The position numbers and the translations under genes are program-made. This document shows, piece after piece, positions 1,893 through 64,000 of a DNA stretch of 64,000 nucleotides (positions are counted from its first letter, which is position 1; the number at the start of each line of letters is the position of its first letter). The notes below the pieces were generated by a model. That model was not told the origin of the DNA. It was given only the letters and a program-made list of their open reading frames with translations, and ran no database searches. Origin of the DNA: Escherichia coli. GTDB taxonomy: Bacteria > Pseudomonadota > Gammaproteobacteria > Enterobacterales > Enterobacteriaceae. The stretch is from assembly GCF_045037415.1 (NCBI RefSeq), contig NZ_CP173438.1; one strand, given 5' to 3'.

Positions 1893-4800
1893 TTACTCGT
1901 TATCAGAACCGCCCAGACCTGCGTTCAGCAGTTCTGCCAGGCTGGCAGATGCGTCTTCTGCAGTCACCTGCGGTGCAGCCGGAGCTTCACCCGCAGCACG
2001 GCGACGCATACGATCCTGGTGGTACGCGTAACCGGTACCTGCCGGGATCAGACGACCCACGATAACGTTCTCTTTCAGGCCGCGCAGTTCGTCGCGTTTG
2101 CCCGCAACGGCTGCTTCGGTCAGCACGCGAGTGGTCTCCTGGAACGATGCCGCGGAGATGAAGGACTCGGTTGCCAGAGACGCTTTGGTAATACCCAGCA
2201 GATCGCGGGAGTAAGTTGCACCCACTTTACCGTTCGCTTCCAGTTCGCGGTTTGCGATCTTGACGCGAGAGTATTCAACCTGTTCACCTTCCAGGAAGTC
2301 GGAGCTGCCCGCGTTAACGATGGTAGCTTTACGCAGCATCTGACGAACGATAACTTCGATGTGTTTATCGTTAATCTTAACGCCCTGCAGACGGTATACG
2401 TCCTGTACTTCGTTAACGATGTAACGAGTCACAGCATGAACACCACGCAGACGCAGAATGTCGTGCGGCGCTTCCGGACCGTCGGAAATTACGTCACCAC
2501 GTTCTACACGTTCACCTTCGAACACGTTGAGCTGACGCCATTTCGGAATCATCTCTTCGTACGGATCGCTACCGTCTACCGGGGTGATAACCAGACGACG
2601 TTTACCTTTGGTTTCTTTACCGAAGGAAACGATACCGCTGATTTCAGCCAGGATTGCCGGCTCTTTCGGACGACGTGCTTCGAACAGGTCCGCAACGCGC
2701 GGCAGACCACCGGTGATGTCCTTGGTACCGCCGGATTCCTGCGGAATACGCGCCAGGGTGTCACCAGAGCTGATCTGTACGCCATCTTCCAGCTGAACAA
2801 TCGCTTTACCCGGCAGGAAGTACTGCGCAGGCATATCGGTACCCGGGATCAGAACGTCGTTACCCTGAGCATCAACGATTTTCAGTGCCGGACGCAGATC
2901 TTTACCACCTGCGGTACGTTCTGCGGAATCCAGAACCACCAGCGAAGACAGACCGGTCAATTCGTCGGTCTGACGAGTAATGGTCTGGCCGTCGATCATG
3001 TCAGTAAAGCGTACAAAACCGCTTACTTCGGTGATAACCGGCATGGTGTGCGGGTCCCAGTTTGCAACGGTTTCGCCGCCAGCAACCTGTTCGCCATCGC
3101 CTTTCGCCAGTACCGCACCGTAAGGTACTTTGTAGCTTTCTTTGGTACGACCGAATTCGTCGATCAGTTTCAGTTCGGTGTTACGGGAAGTGATAACCAG
3201 TTTACCGCTGGAGTTCACAACCGACTTCACGTTGCTGAGCTTGATGCTACCTTTGTTTTTCACCTGGATGCTGGATTCAGCAGCCGCACGAGATGCCGCA
3301 CCACCGATGTGGAACGTACGCATGGTCAGCTGTGTACCCGGTTCACCGATGGACTGTGCCGCGATAACACCGATTGCTTCACCTTTATTGATGATGTGGC
3401 CACGCGCCAGGTCACGACCGTAGCAGTGCGCACATACACCAAAGTCGGTGTCACAAGATACAACAGAACGTACTTTAACCGCGTCGACAGAGTTCTCTTC
3501 CAGCAGGTCACACCACTGTTCGTGCAGCAGCGTGTTGCGCGGAACGAGGATATCAGCAGTACCCGGCTTCAGAACGTCTTCAGCAGTTACACGACCCAAT
3601 ACGCGATCGCGCAGCGGCTCTTTAACGTCACCACCCTCGATAACCGGAGTCATCATGATACCTTCATGGGTACCACAATCGTCTTCGGTAACCACCAGGT
3701 CCTGCGCCACGTCAACCAGACGACGAGTCAGGTAACCGGAGTTCGCCGTTTTCAGTGCGGTATCCGCCAGACCTTTACGAGCACCGTGGGTGGAGATGAA
3801 GTACTGGAGTACGTTCAGACCTTCACGGAAGTTCGCGGTGATTGGCGTTTCGATGATGGAGCCATCCGGCTTCGCCATCAGACCACGCATACCAGCAAGC
3901 TGACGAATCTGTGCCGCAGAACCACGCGCACCGGAGTCGGCCATCATGTAGATGCTGTTGAAGGAAACCTGCTTCTCTTCCTGACCGTCACGGTTAATAA
4001 CGGTTTCAGTTTGCAGGTTATCCATCATCGCTTTGGATACACGATCGTTCGCCGCAGCCCAGATATCGATAACTTTGTTGTAGCGTTCGCCCGCAGTTAC
4101 CAGACCAGACTGGAACTGCTCCTGAATTTCAGCAACTTCTGCTTCTGCCTCGGAGATGATTTCGTGTTTCTTCTCCGGGATGACCATGTCATCGATACCA
4201 ACAGATGCACCAGAACGCGCTGCATATGCAAAGCCGGTATACATGATCTGGTCCGCAAAAATAACGGTCGGTTTCAGACCGAGAATGCGGTAGCAGGTGT
4301 TCAGCATTTTGGAGATTGCTTTTTTACCCAGCGCCTGGTTGACGATGGTGTAAGGCAGACCTTTCGGTACAATCATCCACAGAATGGCACGGCCAACAGT
4401 CGTGTCTTTCAGGCTGGTTTTCGCCACTAATTCACCGTTAGCATCTTTTTCATACTCGGTGATACGCACTTTAACGCGCGCATGCAGAGAAGCCAGACCA
4501 GAGCGATACAGACGTTCTGCTTCTTTCGGGCCAGTCAGCACCATGCCTTCGCCTTTGGCGTTAACACAGTCGCGGGTCATGTAGTACAGACCCAGTACAA
4601 CGTCCTGAGACGGAACGATGATTGGTTCGCCGTTCGCCGGGGACAGGATGTTGTTGGTAGACATCATCAGCGCACGCGCTTCCAGCTGGGCTTCCAGCGT
4701 CAGCGGTACGTGAACGGCCATCTGGTCACCATCGAAGTCGGCGTTATATGCCGCACAAACCAGCGGGTGCAGCTGGATAGCTTTACCTTCGATCAGTACC

Positions 4801-6116
4801 GGTTCAAATGCCTGGATACCCAGACGGTGCAGAGTCGGTGCACGGTTCAGCAGTACCGGGTGTTCGCGGATAACTTCGTCCAGGATATCCCAAACGACAG
4901 CTTCTTCGCGCTCAACCATTTTCTTCGCAGCTTTGATGGTGGTAGCAAGACCACGCAGTTCCAGCTTGCCGTAGATGAACGGTTTGAACAGCTCCAGCGC
5001 CATTTTCTTCGGCAGACCGCACTGATGCAGACGCAGGTATGGACCTACGGTGATTACAGAACGACCGGAGTAGTCAACACGCTTACCGAGCAGGTTCTGA
5101 CGGAAACGACCCTGTTTACCTTTGATCATGTCGGCCAAAGATTTCAGAGGACGCTTGTTAGAACCGGTGATTGCACGACCGCGACGACCGTTATCCAGCA
5201 GGGCGTCTACCGCTTCCTGCAGCATACGTTTTTCGTTACGTACGATGATATCCGGCGCAGCCAGGTCCAGCAGACGTTTCAGACGGTTGTTACGGTTAAT
5301 GACGCGACGATACAGATCGTTCAGGTCAGAAGTCGCGAAACGACCACCATCCAGCGGAACCAGCGGACGCAGATCTGGCGGCAGTACCGGCAGAACGGTC
5401 AGGATCATCCACTCTGGTTTGTTACCAGACTGAACGAACGCTTCCAGCAGTTTGATACGCTTGGTCAGCTTTTTACGCTTGGTTTCGGAGTTGGTTTCGT
5501 TCAGCTCTTCACGCAGCTGTTCGCACTCTTGCTCCAGATCCATGCTCTTCAGCAGGGCCTGGATTGCTTCCGCCCCCATCTTCGCGTCGAATTCGTCACC
5601 GAACTCTTCCAGCGCGTCCAGATACTGCTCTTCAGTCAGGATCTGCTGACGCTCCAGGTTGGTCATACCACCTTCGATAACCACATAGGATTCGAAGTAC
5701 AGTACGCGTTCGATATCGCGCAGCGGCATATCGAGCAGCAGGCCGATACGGGACGGCAGCGATTTCAGGAACCAGATGTGCGCAGTCGGGGAAGCCAGTT
5801 CGATGTGGCCCATACGCTCACGGCGTACTTTAGTCTGGGTCACTTCAACGCCGCACTTCTCACAGATGACGCCACGGTGTTTCAGGCGCTTGTACTTACC
5901 GCACAGGCACTCGTAATCTTTTACCGGCCCAAAGATACGGGCGCAGAAAAGGCCGTCACGTTCTGGTTTGAACGTACGGTAGTTGATGGTTTCCGGCTTT
6001 TTAACTTCACCGAAAGACCATGAACGGATCATGTCTGGCGAAGCCAGAGCAATTTTGATCGCATCAAACTCTTCGGTTTTAGTCTGCGCTTTCAGAAACT
6101 TTAATAAATCTTTCAC
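1893..6116 (-). CDS. rpoC: DNA-directed RNA polymerase subunit beta' (RpoC)
   Basis: 1407 aa; catalytic NADFDGDQM motif; 76-bp gap to rpoB. Confidence 0.98.
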
Positions 6117-6192
6117 GGATTTGCTCCCGTCGGAGTTAGCACAATCCGCTGCCGGGTTTTACCCCGACAGCAGTGACCTGTTTGAGCGAGAA

Positions 6193-9100
6193 TTACTCGT
6201 CTTCCAGTTCGATGTTGATACCCAGCGAACGAATCTCTTTCAACAATACGTTGAAGGATTCTGGCATGCCCGGCTCCATCTGATGGTTGCCGTCCACGAT
6301 GTTTTTATACATCTTAGTACGACCGTTCACGTCATCAGACTTAACGGTGAGCATTTCCTGCAGGGTGTATGCTGCGCCGTATGCTTCCAGCGCCCACACT
6401 TCCATCTCCCCGAAACGCTGACCACCGAACTGTGCCTTACCACCCAGCGGCTGCTGAGTAACCAGGCTGTAAGAACCGGTGGAACGCGCGTGCATCTTGT
6501 CGTCGACCAGGTGGTTCAGTTTCAGCATGTACATGTAACCAACGGTTACCGGACGTTCGAACTGTTCACCAGTGCGACCGTCGTACAGGCGGATCTGACC
6601 AGAAGTCGGCAGGTCGCCAAGTTTCAGCAGCTCTTTAATTTCTGCTTCTTTCGCACCGTCGAAGACCGGCGTTGCGATTGGCATACCTTTGCGCAGGTTT
6701 TCAGCCAGACGCATAACTTCTTCATCGCTGAAGGTACTCAGGTCAACTTTCTGACGAACATCAGCGCCCAGATCGTACGCACGCTGGATGAATTCGCGCA
6801 GTTTCGCGACTTCTTGCTGCTGTTTCAGCATGGCGTTGATCTTGTCGCCGATACCTTTCGCAGCCATACCCAGGTGGGTTTCGAGGATCTGACCAATGTT
6901 CATACGAGACGGTACGCCCAGCGGGTTCAGTACGATGTCTACCGGAGTACCGTTTTCATCGTAAGGCATATCTTCGATCGGGTTGATCTTAGAAATTACA
7001 CCCTTGTTACCATGACGGCCTGCCATCTTGTCACCAGGCTGGATACGGCGTTTAACCGCCAGATATACCTTAACAATCTTCAGCACGCCCGGTGCCAGAT
7101 CGTCGCCCTGGGTGATTTTGCGGCGTTTCGCTTCGAGTTTCTTCTCGAACTCGTGTTTCAGTTCGTCATACTGCTCAGCCAGCTGTTCCAGCTGATTTTG
7201 TTTCTCTTCGTCGGTCAGGCCCAGCTCCAGCCAGCGATCGCGCGGCAGTTTGTCGAGCTTCTCAGCTTCAACGCCACCGGCTACCAGCACAGCACGGATA
7301 CGGCTGAACAGACCTGCTTCGAGGATCTGCAGTTCTTCAGACAGGTCTTTCTTCGCCTGTTTGAGCTGCATTTCTTCGATTTCCAGCGCACGTTTATCTT
7401 TTTCTACGCCATCGCGAGTAAAGACCTGAACGTCGATAACCGTACCGGATACACCGTTTGGTACGCGCAGAGAAGAGTCTTTAACGTCAGACGCTTTCTC
7501 ACCGAAGATCGCACGCAGCAGTTTTTCTTCTGGGGTCAGCTGAGTTTCACCTTTCGGCGTTACCTTACCAACCAGAATGTCGCCACCGGTCACTTCCGCA
7601 CCAATGTAAACGATACCGGATTCATCCAGTTTGGAGAGCGCAGCTTCACCCACGTTCGGGATGTCAGCGGTGATCTCTTCCGGCCCCAGCTTGGTATCAC
7701 GGGACACACACGCCAGTTCCTGAATATGGATGGTGGTGAAACGGTCTTCCTGAACAACACGCTCGGATACGAGGATGGAGTCTTCGAAGTTGTAACCATT
7801 CCACGGCATGAACGCTACGCGCATGTTCTGACCAAGCGCCAGTTCACCGAGGTCGGTGGACGGACCGTCTGCCAGCACGTCGCCACGTTCTACCGGTTCA
7901 CCCAGAGACACACACGGCATCTGGTTGATACAGGTGTTCTGGTTAGAACGGGTGTACTTGGTCAGGTTGTAGATGTCGATACCTGCTTCACCCGGATACA
8001 TCTCGTCTTCGTTAACTTTGATAACGATACGGGAAGCATCCACGTACTGAACGACACCACCACGTTTAGCAACCGCAGTTACACCAGAGTCAACGGCAAC
8101 AGCACGTTCCATACCCGTACCAACCAGCGGCTTATCAGCACGCAGAGTCGGAACGGCCTGACGTTGCATGTTCGCACCCATCAATGCACGGTTGGCGTCA
8201 TCGTGTTCCAGGAACGGGATCAGGGACGCACCGACGGATACCACCTGCTGGGTGGATACGTCCATGTAGTCAACCTGGTCGCGGCTGAACAAGCTGGATT
8301 CGCCTTTGCTACGGCAAGTTACCAGGTCTTCTACGAAGTGGCCTTCTTCATCCAGGTTGGAGTTCGCCTGGGCGATAACGTAGTTGCCTTCTTCGATAGC
8401 AGACAGATAGTGAATTTCGTCAGTTACAACACCGTCGGTCACTTTACGATACGGAGTCTCAAGGAAGCCGTATTCGTTAGTCTGTGCGTACACGGACAGG
8501 GAGTTGATCAGACCGATGTTCGGACCTTCAGGGGTTTCGATTGGACATACGCGACCGTAGTGAGTCGGGTGTACGTCTCGAACTTCGAAGCCTGCACGTT
8601 CACGGGTCAGACCGCCTGGGCCGAGTGCCGAGATACGACGTTTGTGCGTAATCTCAGACAGCGGGTTGTTCTGGTCCATAAACTGAGACAGCTGGCTGGA
8701 ACCGAAGAACTCTTTCACTGCTGCGGAAATCGGCTTGGCGTTGATCATATCCTGAGGCATCAGGGTATCCAGATCGCCCAGAGACAGACGCTCTTTCACC
8801 GCACGCTCTACACGTACCAGGCCAACGCGGAACTGGTTTTCCGCCATTTCGCCAACAGAACGGATACGACGGTTGCCGAGGTGGTCGATATCATCGACTT
8901 CGCCTTTACCGTTACGGATATCGATGAGCTTTTTCATAACATCAATGATGTCGTCTTTGCTCAGGATACCGGAACCTTCGATTTCTTCGCGCAGCAGAGA
9001 ACGGTTGAACTTCATACGACCAACCGCAGACAGGTCATAGCGGTCTTCGGAGAAGAACAGGTTCTCAAACAGGCTTTCAGCTGCTTCACGAGTCGGCGGC

Positions 9101-60995: not shown

Positions 60996-61213
60996 AAGGA
61001 AAAGCCGAAGGGCGTCAACCGAAAAATAACCAATGATGGTGAGGAAAAATCAGGGAAGATGAAAAAAACTCATCTTAATTAGAGGCGATAAAAGATTTCT
61101 CTATAGCGCAATCCACCTCGCACGTTTTGACTCATATTCTGACAACACAGCGACACCTGGGCTAATTCGAAAAACAACGTCCTGCCACCGGATGGTGATG
61201 TTAAGGCATCTGA

Positions 61214-61241
61214 TTCGGCCTGCGCCCTCGCGTAGGCCGAA
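61214..61241. repeat. REP-like imperfect palindrome
   Basis: ttcggcctgcg-ccctcg-cgtaggccgaa; no adjacent T-run, so probably not an intrinsic terminator. Confidence 0.35.
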
Positions 61242-61298
61242 TACAGGATCTGCGCAATCAACGGGTAACAAACAGTTGAGTCAATTCAGTGCGCACTT

Positions 61299-62852
61299 TT
61301 ATTTGATATCCTTCACGCGCATACCGTTGAGCTGTTCATCCGTAATGGTGTTGCCCGCTTTGAAGTAATCAACCACCGCGTGATAAACGTAATAACCGCC
61401 CGTTGTGTTACGCGCTTTCCCTTCGGTAAAGGCGGTAAAACCATCTCCACCATCAGCAAGGAAACTCTGAGTAGCAATGTGATAAACCGTCGCATCTTCA
61501 ATGGGTTTGCCATTCAAAGTCAGTGTGATTACCCGCTGACCAACCGGCCTGTTGCTGTCGTACTTCATTTCCAGGCCTTTCGATACCTGTAAAACGCCAT
61601 TGCTTAAACTTGCGCCGTGTTCCATCAGACTGCGTAATTGTTTACCCATGAGTTCCATCGTCACCAGTTCGTTGGGGAACGGAAACGTACTGATGACGCC
61701 GCCCATCGTGATCGCCCCTGCGGGGATCTCATTGCGGATACCACCAGAGTTTGTTAACGCCAGTTGGGTGTTTTTACCCGCCGCTACCAATAAAGCGTCA
61801 GCCGCCAGGTTCCCGAGGGAAGCCGATTCACCATAGGCACGTTTTAATTCAACCGGCGATTGCGCCACCGTTTGTTGCACCACTTCATCAAGCTTTTTAT
61901 TCCAGCCGTCGATCACCTGTTTCGTTTGCGGATCGGGCTTCCACTCGTCAGCGTAAATGGTTTTAAGCTCGAAGTTTTTCACCGTAAAATTATGCGGCTT
62001 CTCTTTGTAGTCGAGAACCAGTTTGCCCACATCAATCCCGCCGCTGTCAGTGGAGAGGATGAGCGTATTGCCGACTTTAATCGGTTCCGGCGTACCCACA
62101 TGTGCATGTCCGGTGATCAAAATATCCAGCCCTTTCACCTGACTTGCCGTCTGAATATCTTTATCCAACGCGCGACGCACATCTGTGCCTCCCATACTGG
62201 ACTGGCGGGCTGGAACACCTTCGTGGATCAGGGCGACGGTCAAATCAACCTTGCCTTTGAGTTCATCGATATAACGTTGTAGCCATTTAATTTCATCGCG
62301 CGCTTCAATACCCACGCGCGTGGCAGCAGATACCGTATCATTAAAGGCAAATACTCCGTGCAAACCAATAACGCCTATTTTCACACCGTCTTTTTCGATG
62401 ATGGTATAGGGCTTATCCCAGAATGATTTACTGCTGTTCTGATAAAAAATATTGCCCTGCACAATAGGGAATTTTGCCTGGCTCAACTGTAATAATGTGT
62501 TGTCCCAGCCGTGGTCAAATTCATGGTTGCCTATTGTGACGGCATCAAACGGCATAGTATTCATAATATCGATAATAGCCTTACCTTTGGTCAGGCTGCT
62601 GATATATGGCCCGGTAAAATAGTCGCCCGCATCAAAAAACCATGTCGCTTTATTTTTTGCTTTTTCTTGCTTAACCAGCGTAGTGATATTTGCCCAGCCG
62701 CCAATATCCCGTTTACCGTCAGCGATCCACGGCACTTTATAAGGCTCGACATGTGCATGGAGGTCGTTGGTATAAATGATGGTGACATCTTTAGCGCAAG
62801 CCCAGAATGGCAGTGTTAATGCGATACCCGCAGCAAGTATTTTAATTTTCAT
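61299..62852 (-). CDS. Secreted bifunctional metallophosphatase / 5'-nucleotidase-family protein
   Basis: 517 aa; N-terminal signal peptide [20 protein letters not shown]; calcineurin-like motifs DLHAH, GDYF, GNHEFD, GHAH; C-terminal 5'-nucleotidase-type domain; not at this locus in K-12 as I recall it. Confidence 0.8.
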
Positions 62853-62984
62853 AAACAGTCCCTTTCAGTGAGATAAAGGATTGCTACATTACGTTCTGAA
62901 AGACTTATTTATGTGAGAGTAATCACATCCGCAGGGGATAGTTGCCGGACAAAATCAACGACCTTGTGAAATCGTTGGTGATAT

Positions 62985-64000
62985 ATGTCGACTCTGTTTA
63001 CGATTAATGCCTGTAAGTCGTTTGGTTGCCGTAATTTAGGGCAGCCAACATCGACAGATTATAGCTGGCCCGACTATCGACTGGGTTATCCGGCACTGCA
63101 CTGTCGGGCATGTGGCAGTTACCCGCCGTTGTTTGACGAGCAACAATTTCGTGACTGGTTGACAGTTCACTTATCTACTTTTGCAACAGAGAAAGGCCAT
63201 TTTTGCCCGGTATGTTATGGCACAGAGACGATTTGTTATGGTCACAATCCACAGGGTTCGCAACGCATTCAATGCCGTAACTGCAAAAAAGTATGGACAC
63301 CCAAACAATATCAGAAAGAAATAACGACTCCCGAAATAATCGAAACGGTTGCTTTGCTCGTGCCATTTCAGGGAGTCAGCAGCGGGCAGAAACTGTATGT
63401 TTTAATCAGTTTTGATGCTCTTCGCGGTAATATTCTTCATCTTTCTACTAATTACACGCAGCATCAGGCTGGAGAAAGTCTGCATTATCGATACAGAGGA
63501 AATGCAGAACCAGAGTTACACGACAATAATATTGTACAACGCGTTGATATGCGCGAAGCACAATTTCTACGCCGCAGTCAGTTTGATGAAATTCAGTATG
63601 GCAGCGCAGCGCTCAAGCGCAATGCCAAAGGCGCTATTCTGCGTCCGGTTATCACTGCACACGGGCATTTCAGAGTACTGAATATTTTATTCCCTACAGT
63701 AAAAACACATGTAATTTCACACGAGTGTTTTTTAAGAGGTGCCATTATTACGGCCTGGGCTGATCTGTTTCGCCAACAGCAAGGTGAAATTTGGTTTATT
63801 GAAGAGGAAATAGCTGACGATACCGATAATATGCCCTGGCGTTTTCAGGGAAAAACTTATCACGGCTGGTGGAAAAATCAGTGGCAACTCTGGGTTCAGG
63901 GAAAAAATCGTAAAATGGTATGTGCATTAACGGGCGGAAAGAGTAGCAAAGCAGAAATGCTCTCTTTAGCAACCAGCAGACATTTTATCGACTGGCTACA
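62985..64000 (+). CDS. Cys-rich zinc-ribbon protein, 3'-truncated by window end (at least 338 codons); function unknown, possibly transposase-like
   Basis: ATG at 62985 preceded by in-frame TGA; frame stays open to position 64000; two CxxC...CxxC clusters (CKSFGC..HCRACG and FCPVCYG..QRIQCRNCKKVW); absent from the ORF track because no stop lies inside the window. Confidence 0.6.
   Translation, partial: MSTLFTINACKSFGCRNLGQPTSTDYSWPDYRLGYPALHCRACGSYPPLFDEQQFRDWLTVHLSTFATEKGHFCPVCYGTETICYGHNPQGSQRIQCRNCKKVWTPKQYQKEITTPEIIETVALLVPFQGVSSGQKLYVLISFDALRGNILHLSTNYTQHQAGESLHYRYRGNAEPELHDNNIVQRVDMREAQFLRRSQFDEIQYGSAALKRNAKGAILRPVITAHGHFRVLNILFPTVKTHVISHECFLRGAIITAWADLFRQQQGEIWFIEEEIADDTDNMPWRFQGKTYHGWWKNQWQLWVQGKNRKMVCALTGGKSSKAEMLSLATSRHFIDWL

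Follow-up and report, generated by a model that had tools for sequence, protein, structure and literature searches.

An IS1-derived gene beside a 5'-nucleotidase gene in Escherichia coli, a candidate CRP-partnered regulator of nucleotide scavenging

What kind of protein is encoded by a long open reading frame (ORF) that runs off the end of a stretch of Escherichia coli DNA and carries two zinc ribbons? The stretch, here denoted the window, comprises 64,000 nucleotides of contig NZ_CP173438.1 (RefSeq assembly GCF_045037415.1), and the ORF, denoted the zinc-ribbon gene, occupies its last kilobase. An earlier reading of the letters alone (the sequence-only reading) had offered two answers, an insertion sequence (IS) transposase marking an island boundary, or a zinc-finger nucleic-acid-binding protein of a different kind. 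We judge the second to be the closer one. Profile searches and a structural model indicate that the gene descends from an IS1-type transposase; it now exists as one orthologous copy at a constant locus, has lost its transposon ends and evolves under purifying selection. We give somewhat better than even chances to the view that this domesticated IS1-like transposase is a dedicated, CRP-partnered regulator of nucleotide- and nucleoside-scavenging genes. Its target in the window would most likely be the divergently transcribed gene of a secreted 5'-nucleotidase. This gene, and the CRP site between the two genes, are the decisive context that the sequence-only reading missed. All functional claims made here are computational.

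Reality and ancestry of the zinc-ribbon gene

Reading the plus strand from the ATG at 62985 gives 338 sense codons without a stop before the window ends at 64000, as had been noticed from the sequence; since the frame runs off the window end, it is missing from the list of ORFs. By base composition, the chance of such a stop-free frame is ~4e-7 per start, with ~0.06 expected across the whole window. The last 2 kb of the window are 100% identical to many complete E. coli genomes, and the full coding sequence was read in one identical chromosome (NZ_AP018784.2, locus L001). It has 1131 nt and encodes 376 amino acids (WP_000105529.1), labelled 'hypothetical protein' or, in other genomes, 'cytoplasmic protein'. 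In window coordinates the full gene extends from 62985 to the virtual position 64115, its last 37 nt overlapping the 3' end of the convergent gene metL. The same intact ORF is found in hundreds of complete genomes, so that nothing points to a frameshift or a sequencing error, a concern the sequence-only reading had raised. Against diverged alleles and orthologues, the ratio of non-synonymous to synonymous substitution rates (dN/dS) is 0.09-0.17, indicating purifying selection.

Both Cys4 clusters proposed from the sequence are present and conserved. In an alignment of 73 homologues that reaches down to 19% identity, residues C10, C15, C40 and C43 of the first cluster and C74, C77, C97 and C100 of the second are each kept in at least 90% of the sequences, with the exception of C74, which is invariant in 15 close homologues and present in less than 80% of all 73. 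The tryptophan tract is conserved as well (W295 in 89%, W296 in 97% and W300 in 100%). The conserved clusters and tract, together with the dN/dS values, demonstrate that the frame is a real, conserved E. coli gene that codes for a protein under selection.

The first zinc ribbon is an extra domain relative to IS1 InsA, and the evidence for ancestry comes from the second. Taken singly, the E. coli protein gives sequence matches confined to residues 74-105, all of them weak: Pfam Zn_ribbon_InsA at an E value of 0.02, NCBIfam NF050000 (IS1/IS1595 zinc-binding domain) at 21.8 bits against a cut-off of 28, the NCBIfam IS1 transposase at 21.4 bits against a cut-off of 100, and a weak PHROGs 'transposase' match over the zinc ribbon only. 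A profile of the family compared with IS1 InsAB' by hhalign, however, gave a probability of 96.3% and an E value of 1.5e-9 over InsA residues 5-87, which include the zinc ribbon and a helix-turn-helix (HTH). PF03811 matches 15 of the 73 members at E<=1e-3, and PF12760 (Zn_ribbon_IS1595) matches seven at E<=0.1 and none at E<=1e-3. Thus, the proposal that the second cluster is a zinc ribbon of IS1/IS1595 type holds for the family (hhalign, PF03811), and the single E. coli protein stays below threshold.

The C-terminal part, which had been left unplaced by eye, cannot be placed by sequence either. In Pfam, family members have no match to DDE_Tnp_IS1595, and neither the E. coli protein nor the family matches PF03400 or DDE_Tnp_IS1; a profile of this part compared with IS1 InsB by hhalign gave a non-significant probability of 0.6%. 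Searching the PDB yielded no meaningful match with the E. coli protein and, with the family profile, compositional matches to C2H2 zinc fingers only. Searches with the A2 profile and with IS1 returned close relatives only among the 120 best matches, and no diverse IS1 profile could be built. The 50 best Foldseek matches in AFDB50 were family members only. PADLOC models matched neither the zinc-ribbon protein nor the nucleotidase.

The predicted structure, in contrast, does place it. The AlphaFold2 (AF2) model of the E. coli protein, made from the 73-sequence alignment with its distant members, has a mean local confidence (pLDDT) of 93.6 and a global score (pTM) of 0.93; with the 15 close homologues alone the pLDDT was 35, and the distant members were needed for a usable model. 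Structure comparison assigned the C-terminal domain to the DDE-transposase/RNase H fold, nearest to IS1 transposases. As InsB cannot be aligned by sequence, the IS1 origin of this domain is argued from its fold and from the N-terminal homology. Distant members of the family are 400-520 amino acids long and carry between the second zinc ribbon and the C-terminal domain an additional helical, InsA-like HTH segment of ~60-70 amino acids. In the short forms of the Enterobacteriaceae, including that of E. coli, the HTH is deleted, and the model is free of helix between residues 100 and 118.

Is the core still that of an active transposase? In the model, the secondary-structure elements follow one another as beta1 (118-128), beta2 (135-144), beta3 (150-155), alpha1 (183-196), beta4 (217-219), a helix at 221-235, beta5 (241-245) and a helix at 248-263. 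From the model and the 73 homologues we infer that the expected catalytic positions hold T121, R220-P221 and H246-E247, a mapping made by the order of these elements in the canonical RNase H fold and not by superposition in three dimensions. Position 121 in beta1 is T or S in 95% of the members, position 220 after beta4 is R or K in 79%, and position 247 is acidic in 100%, being the sole universally acidic position of the domain. R197, H228 and W300 are invariant. D144 and D201 (acidic in 79% and 86% of the members, respectively) are located where the fold places no catalytic residues. A triad of D144, D201 and E247, in which the two aspartates are 57 residues apart as in IS1, was considered and rejected, because in the model D144 and D201 are separated by no more than a single strand and a single helix, and because of their incomplete conservation. 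According to the model, therefore, the RNase H-like core no longer conserves a DDE triad, and the protein no longer looks able to transpose.

Compared with IS1 itself, the zinc-ribbon protein has an N-terminal zinc ribbon that InsAB' and the InsA repressor lack, and a much larger core with a four-strand beta insertion and the Trp-rich tract. The gene is one continuous ORF without the frameshift of InsAB'. It has no DDE triad, inverted repeats or mobility and occupies a fixed chromosomal locus, and the E. coli protein, unlike InsA, has no HTH.

The islet between metF and metL and the neighbours of the family

The zinc-ribbon gene and the divergent nucleotidase gene together form a 3010-bp islet between metF and metL. 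K-12 holds 197 unrelated bp in its place, and the right boundary lies exactly at the metL stop codon. Of 5426 complete E. coli genomes, 1843 contain the islet, each in a single place, so that about two thirds are without the gene. The median is likewise one place per genome, any second place being the 36-nt overlap with metL. No terminal inverted repeats, which the sequence-only reading had suggested looking for, bracket the gene, and the overlap of the 3' end of the ORF with metL leaves no room for an IS end. The same metF-metL site is occupied in Citrobacter, and the divergent pairing with an 88-91% identical 5'-nucleotidase gene is kept in Klebsiella, Salmonella and Superficieibacter. Matches of the gene to plasmids and phages look like mis-binned chromosomes or unannotated short contigs. 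Together these data indicate that the zinc-ribbon gene is cargo of a small nucleotide-scavenging islet, and not an IS at the edge of an island.

B2/ST95-type strains, BEN2908 among them, have a long form of the islet, in which two more nucleotidase genes and tsx lie downstream of a diverged allele of the zinc-ribbon gene. The order (L053, 3315-10505) is a nucleotidase gene, then divergently the zinc-ribbon gene, two nucleotidase genes and tsx. This region, GR31 (metL to metF) of the extraintestinal pathogenic E. coli strain BEN2908, was proposed to be a nucleoside processing and transport system (PMC12928451); the portion of that paper available to us lists no function for the zinc-ribbon ORF. 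GR31 is the same chromosomal islet in its long form, with three UshA-like nucleotidase genes and tsx, whereas the window has the short, two-gene form. When the two forms are compared at the protein level, the divergent nucleotidases are 99% identical, whereas the zinc-ribbon proteins are 76% identical with a synonymous divergence (dS) of 0.98. This sharp break in divergence suggests an old allelic replacement.

Disrupted copies of the gene were also observed. In E. coli AVS0456 (L013, 2486-4393) an IS1A is inserted in the gene and splits it, a case of a true IS1 disrupting its own distant domesticated relative. In E. coli 2018-05-2CC (L054) the last 200 nt of the gene and a fragment of the nucleotidase gene are left.

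At 50% identity, 1.84 billion proteins yield 119 representatives of the family, of which 45 are full length, and it was seen in Gammaproteobacteria only. Enterobacterial members come from Escherichia, Citrobacter, Klebsiella, Enterobacter, Salmonella, Serratia, Atlantibacter and Proteus, those of the Vibrionaceae from Vibrio, Aliivibrio, Photobacterium and Enterovibrio, and others from Psychromonas, Celerinatantimonas and Alginatibacterium. An intact ORF of 374-391 amino acids is present in five genera (Escherichia, Citrobacter, Klebsiella, Salmonella and Enterobacter). Members in Photobacterium and Vibrio are labelled inconsistently as 'lactate dehydrogenase', 'IS1 family transposase', 'transposase' or 'cytoplasmic protein'; none of the searches made supported the label 'lactate dehydrogenase'.

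To describe the neighbourhood of the family we collected 35 loci from contigs of one genome per species, using a profile of a 20-sequence subset. A 5'-nucleotidase gene, tandem or divergent, is directly adjacent in 32 of them, and the three remaining loci include one 2.7-kb contig and one truncated locus. The divergent partner in the window is a metallophosphatase/5'-nucleotidase with a signal peptide. In the Vibrionaceae and Psychromonas the two genes share a strand, the nucleotidase gene coming immediately before the family gene, with a gap of 20-35 bp between them in the two loci checked (L018 and L019). In the Enterobacteriaceae and in a pair of Vibrio paralogues the nucleotidase gene is divergent, as it also is in Proteus terrae, with 23% protein identity and at a different chromosomal site. 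Other branches of the family adjoin genes for a NupC-type transporter and a nucleoside phosphorylase, genes for a phosphopentomutase-like (deoB-like) protein, a phosphorylase and a nucleoside:H+ symporter, or a phosphorylase gene (PNP, deoD-like). One Klebsiella locus has two nucleotidase genes and tsx beside the family gene, and one branch stands beside an operon that ends in endonuclease I. The common theme of these neighbours is the scavenging of extracellular nucleic acid, nucleotides and nucleosides.

A further branch, 25% identical to the window protein, is found downstream of a Tsx-like gene and a sulfatase gene, in Atlantibacter with an anSME gene as well (L055, E. coli RHB23-SO-C02, 2597-6245; L010, Atlantibacter, 2519-7263). 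In some E. coli this branch is located between hokC/mokC and nhaA.

The upstream element, CRP and the proposed regulation

Upstream of the nucleotidase gene, 18 loci of Vibrionaceae and Psychromonas share a 20-bp motif, ACCAACACAAATGGAAACTT, with an information content of 18.7 bits. When its matrix was applied to the other loci, the match upstream of the operon adjoining the family gene ranked first or second; these loci were those of Proteus, nupC, the deoB-like gene and the endonuclease operon, together with the Vibrio paralogues in divergent arrangement. The promoter of the neighbouring operon carries the motif in all long-form loci, and its orientation is in each case that of facing the target operon. 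In promoters of ~300 bp, we recorded the best CRP-like site (TGTGA-N6-TCACA, 7-10 matches out of 10) without any positional prior. It fell at +52 from the start of the motif in 22 promoters and at +51 in three, and was tied in one. In 790 kb of DNA the motif had 44 matches scoring at least 13. Of these, 29 have a CRP-like site at +51/52, and they are precisely the matches beside family genes; the other 15 have no CRP site. Between loci whose proteins are 21-39% identical the motif differs at 3-6 of its 20 positions, and distances between motifs rise with those between the proteins (Mantel r 0.34, p 0.002), a correlation to which shared phylogeny contributes.

By inspection of the sequence, the motif was rejected as a second CRP site (2 of 10 consensus matches) and as an IHF site or CytR octamer.

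In the window, a perfect CRP consensus palindrome lies midway between the divergent start codons, its centre ~65 bp from either one. The full motif scores <1 bit in this promoter and is thus absent; its first part, ACCAAC, is nevertheless found on the minus strand exactly 52 bp from the CRP site. These two findings indicate that loss of the HTH in this clade was accompanied by loss of the 3' half of the motif, while the 5' half stayed in register. ACCAAC is part of an inverted repeat, CAACGA-N10-TCGTTG (62955-62978), just upstream of the ATG, and is held in a conserved repeat, ACCAACGATTT-N5-GGTCGTTGATTTTG, common to Escherichia, Citrobacter and Klebsiella. Hexamers resembling a -10 element were seen by eye ~28-30 bp from the CRP centre in both directions, a spacing from which CRP would be a class II activator. 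On this placement the element would lie near -91 of the nucleotidase promoter and over the leader of the zinc-ribbon gene.

Other operator-like sequences accompany these sites. In the Vibrio nucleotidase promoters of six loci (L018, L026, L029, L030, L031 and L037) a LacI-type palindrome, GCAAACG(T/A)TTGC, lies between the motif and the CRP site and abuts the latter; it resembles an operator of the PurR/CytR class and hints at a further layer of purine or nucleoside control. In the long islet (L053, 6195-6260), a 9/10 CRP-like site (6245) precedes the second nucleotidase gene, and ~50 bp upstream of it stands a palindrome, TGACCGTGA-N7-TCATGGTCA, with the geometry of the main promoter and a different sequence. 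In Vibrio hepatarius DSM 19134 (L038, 6903-7785) a family gene truncated at its 5' end directly follows the motif and CRP site, and no nucleotidase gene is present; the full tandem pair exists in a second strain of this species (L023), and L038 is probably a deletion variant.

How might the protein act? We propose that the N-terminal zinc-ribbon/HTH module would bind the ACCAAC element 51-52 bp, or five helical turns, upstream of a CRP site that would itself sit at the class II activator position of a scavenging promoter. The fixed spacing between the candidate element and the CRP site suggests that the protein acts together with CRP-cAMP, either as a co-activator or as a CytR-like anti-activator. 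In the divergent arrangement the element would cover the gene's own 5' leader, and we propose that this gives autoregulation. The inactive transposase core may have been reused for oligomerisation or ligand sensing. In its full form the proposal is that a whole IS1-type DDE transposase was captured as a transcription factor, with its end-binding module on an ACCAAC-type operator 52 bp from a CRP site, controlling a scavenging regulon with CRP, with the dead core as sensor or oligomerisation domain and with an HTH-free form in the Enterobacteriaceae. The regulon would include 5'-nucleotidases, Tsx, NupC, DeoB, DeoD-like proteins and endonuclease I in Enterobacterales and Vibrionales. For this complete version we put the chances a little short of even.

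Several observations weigh against a regulator. The model is weakest for the E. coli window protein itself, whose HTH is gone and whose promoter lacks the full motif; any DNA binding by this short form must then rest on the zinc ribbons and on the ACCAAC/CAACGA repeat, and it may bind through the ribbons or have shifted its function. The motif could be recognised by a different factor of the host. The operon-like tandem of the Vibrionaceae is also typical of enzyme/inhibitor pairs, and the branch with the sulfatase gene has no motif (at L010, no ACCAAC motif was found). Finally, no sequence homology to IS1 InsB could be detected in the C-terminal domain, and the E. coli protein carries D144, D201 and E247, so that residual catalysis is possible.

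The main rival explanation is that the protein is a cytoplasmic partner of the secreted 5'-nucleotidase, an immunity-like inhibitor or a chaperone acting before export, and not a transcription factor. The direct adjacency of the two genes, the short tandem gaps of L018 and L019, which would imply co-expression, and the missing HTH of the E. coli form all speak for it. In addition, a cytoplasmic protein that inhibits E. coli UshA has been described (Glaser 1967 and Innes 2001, as cited in PMC8475336); the review names no gene for it. K-12, however, the source of that classical inhibitor, is without the zinc-ribbon gene, and other branches of the family adjoin nupC, PNP or deoB-like genes with no nucleotidase nearby. 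The short and long E. coli alleles differ by 24% beside a divergent nucleotidase that hardly differs between the islet forms. A nucleotidase partner would also leave aside the conserved InsA-type DNA-binding module and the composite of motif and CRP site that tracks the family, and we hold this explanation to be unlikely.

Less probable still is that the protein remains an enzyme, a nuclease or phosphotransferase of the scavenging pathway with a non-canonical active site (E247, H246, H228 and R197). Its fold is common to nucleases and PIWI domains, D144, D201 and E247 are present in the E. coli protein, and the near-invariance of H246-E247, H228, R197, Y205 and N156 is unusual for a pure scaffold. 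Yet the metal-binding positions have no conserved acidic pair, a zinc ribbon with an HTH is typical of DNA-binding regulators, and the protein is cytoplasmic, whereas the neighbouring steps of the pathway are periplasmic or concern transport.

Slightly behind the enzyme, in our estimate, comes a decaying remnant that lost its HTH and has no current function in E. coli. Such decay would fit the absence of the gene from about two thirds of the complete genomes, the IS1A disruption in one strain and the truncation in another, the many fragmentary database entries, and the loss of the HTH and most of the operator; it is at odds with the ORF kept intact across five genera at a dN/dS of 0.09-0.17, and with intergenic elements strongly conserved among those genera.

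An active or recent IS1/IS1595-family transposase at the edge of a genomic island, the main idea of the sequence-only reading, is very improbable and already largely refuted: the InsA-type zinc ribbon, the transposase fold, the label 'IS1 family transposase' given to relatives in some databases and the position of the gene against the islet boundary at metL are outweighed by its single copy at an orthologous position across genera, the missing terminal inverted repeats and the ORF end inside metL, the missing DDE triad and Pfam transposase matches, the purifying selection with deep allele divergence, and the doubtful nature of the plasmid and phage matches.

The reading as a domesticated regulator has parallels in known systems. 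Transposase-derived transcription factors include FHY3/FAR1, CENP-B and THAP-type proteins of eukaryotes and the TnpB-derived TldR repressors of bacteria. Like these, the zinc-ribbon family has kept a DNA-binding module, lost catalysis, and exists in single copy at a fixed locus, under purifying selection and with candidate target sites close to host genes. It differs in descending from a bacterial DDE (IS1-like) transposase; its regulatory role is deduced from context, and, in contrast to TldR, the protein would be protein-guided and not RNA-guided. CytR and CRP control the nucleoside-scavenging promoters deoP2, tsx, nupG, udp and cdd, where tandem CRP sites are 52-53 bp apart. The likeness lies in the same class of targets (nucleoside uptake and catabolism), the CRP sites and a second protein-binding element ~52-53 bp upstream of the promoter-proximal CRP site; here, however, the upstream element is not CRP-like, the protein does not belong to the LacI family and its contact with CRP is a proposal.

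For eukaryotes, the conversion of DDE transposases into regulators is well documented. For bacteria, to our knowledge, hardly any such case has been documented, and transposase-like genes are as a rule annotated as IS remnants and set aside. The literature searched held no described case of a bacterial DDE transposase turned regulator, and no published characterisation of this protein or family was found in it. Transposase domestication as such is a known event; a bacterial DDE case with a candidate operator and a CRP partnership would be new. If the proposal is true, it adds a family of transcription factors in E. coli (about one third of the complete genomes), Salmonella, Klebsiella, Citrobacter, Proteus and many Vibrionaceae, defines a candidate operator with a rigid CRP geometry, and provides a clean case of a transposase end-binding function reused. 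It would also reveal an unrecognised layer of control over the scavenging of nucleotides and extracellular DNA, a trait tied to how bacteria obtain phosphate and nucleosides in the gut and the sea.

Features of the islet DNA

Table 1. Features of the islet in the window (positions of the window; a point marks features given without a strand)
Feature	Position	Strand	Remarks
Part of the zinc-ribbon gene in the window	62985..64000	+	codons 1-338 of 376; WP_000105529.1
Zinc ribbon 1	63012..63113	+	C10, C15, C40, C43; N8, K11 and Y26 also conserved; AF2 pLDDT ~96
Zinc ribbon 2	63204..63284	+	C74, C77, C97, C100; homologous to IS1 InsA / IS1-IS1595 zinc ribbon
Linker, residues 101-117	63285..63335	+	position of the HTH in longer relatives; no helix at 100-118 in the model
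RNase H-like (DDE-transposase fold) domain, from residue 118	63336..64000	+	from AF2 model, fold comparison and conservation
Trp tract W295-W303	63867-63893	+	inside the RNase H-like domain
Candidate operator remnant	62960..62979	-	ACCAAC at 62974-62979, 52 bp from CRP-like site
Perfect CRP consensus palindrome TGTGA-N6-TCACA	62912..62927	.	conserved in Citrobacter and Klebsiella
Divergent 5'-nucleotidase gene	61299..62852	-	517 aa, UshA-like, WP_000694068.1; adjacency in 32/35 loci
Two-gene islet	61068..64000 (virtual end 64077, 3010 bp)	.	between metF and metL

Between the two genes, a promoter and terminator scan was uninformative and an Rfam scan gave no match. The leader of the nucleotidase gene contains an inverted repeat, CTTTCAG (62862-62868) and CTGAAAG (62896-62902), which overlaps its ribosome-binding site and is conserved in Escherichia, Citrobacter and Klebsiella; it has no Rfam match and could be a hairpin for translational control. 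At the other end of the gene, beyond the window, a hairpin with arms of 27 nt (78% complementary) and a loop of 5 nt is located at L001 17007-17065 (virtual window positions 64006-64064). It falls within the last 40 codons of the ORF, just past the metL stop codon on the opposite strand, and is probably the metL terminator embedded in the coding region.

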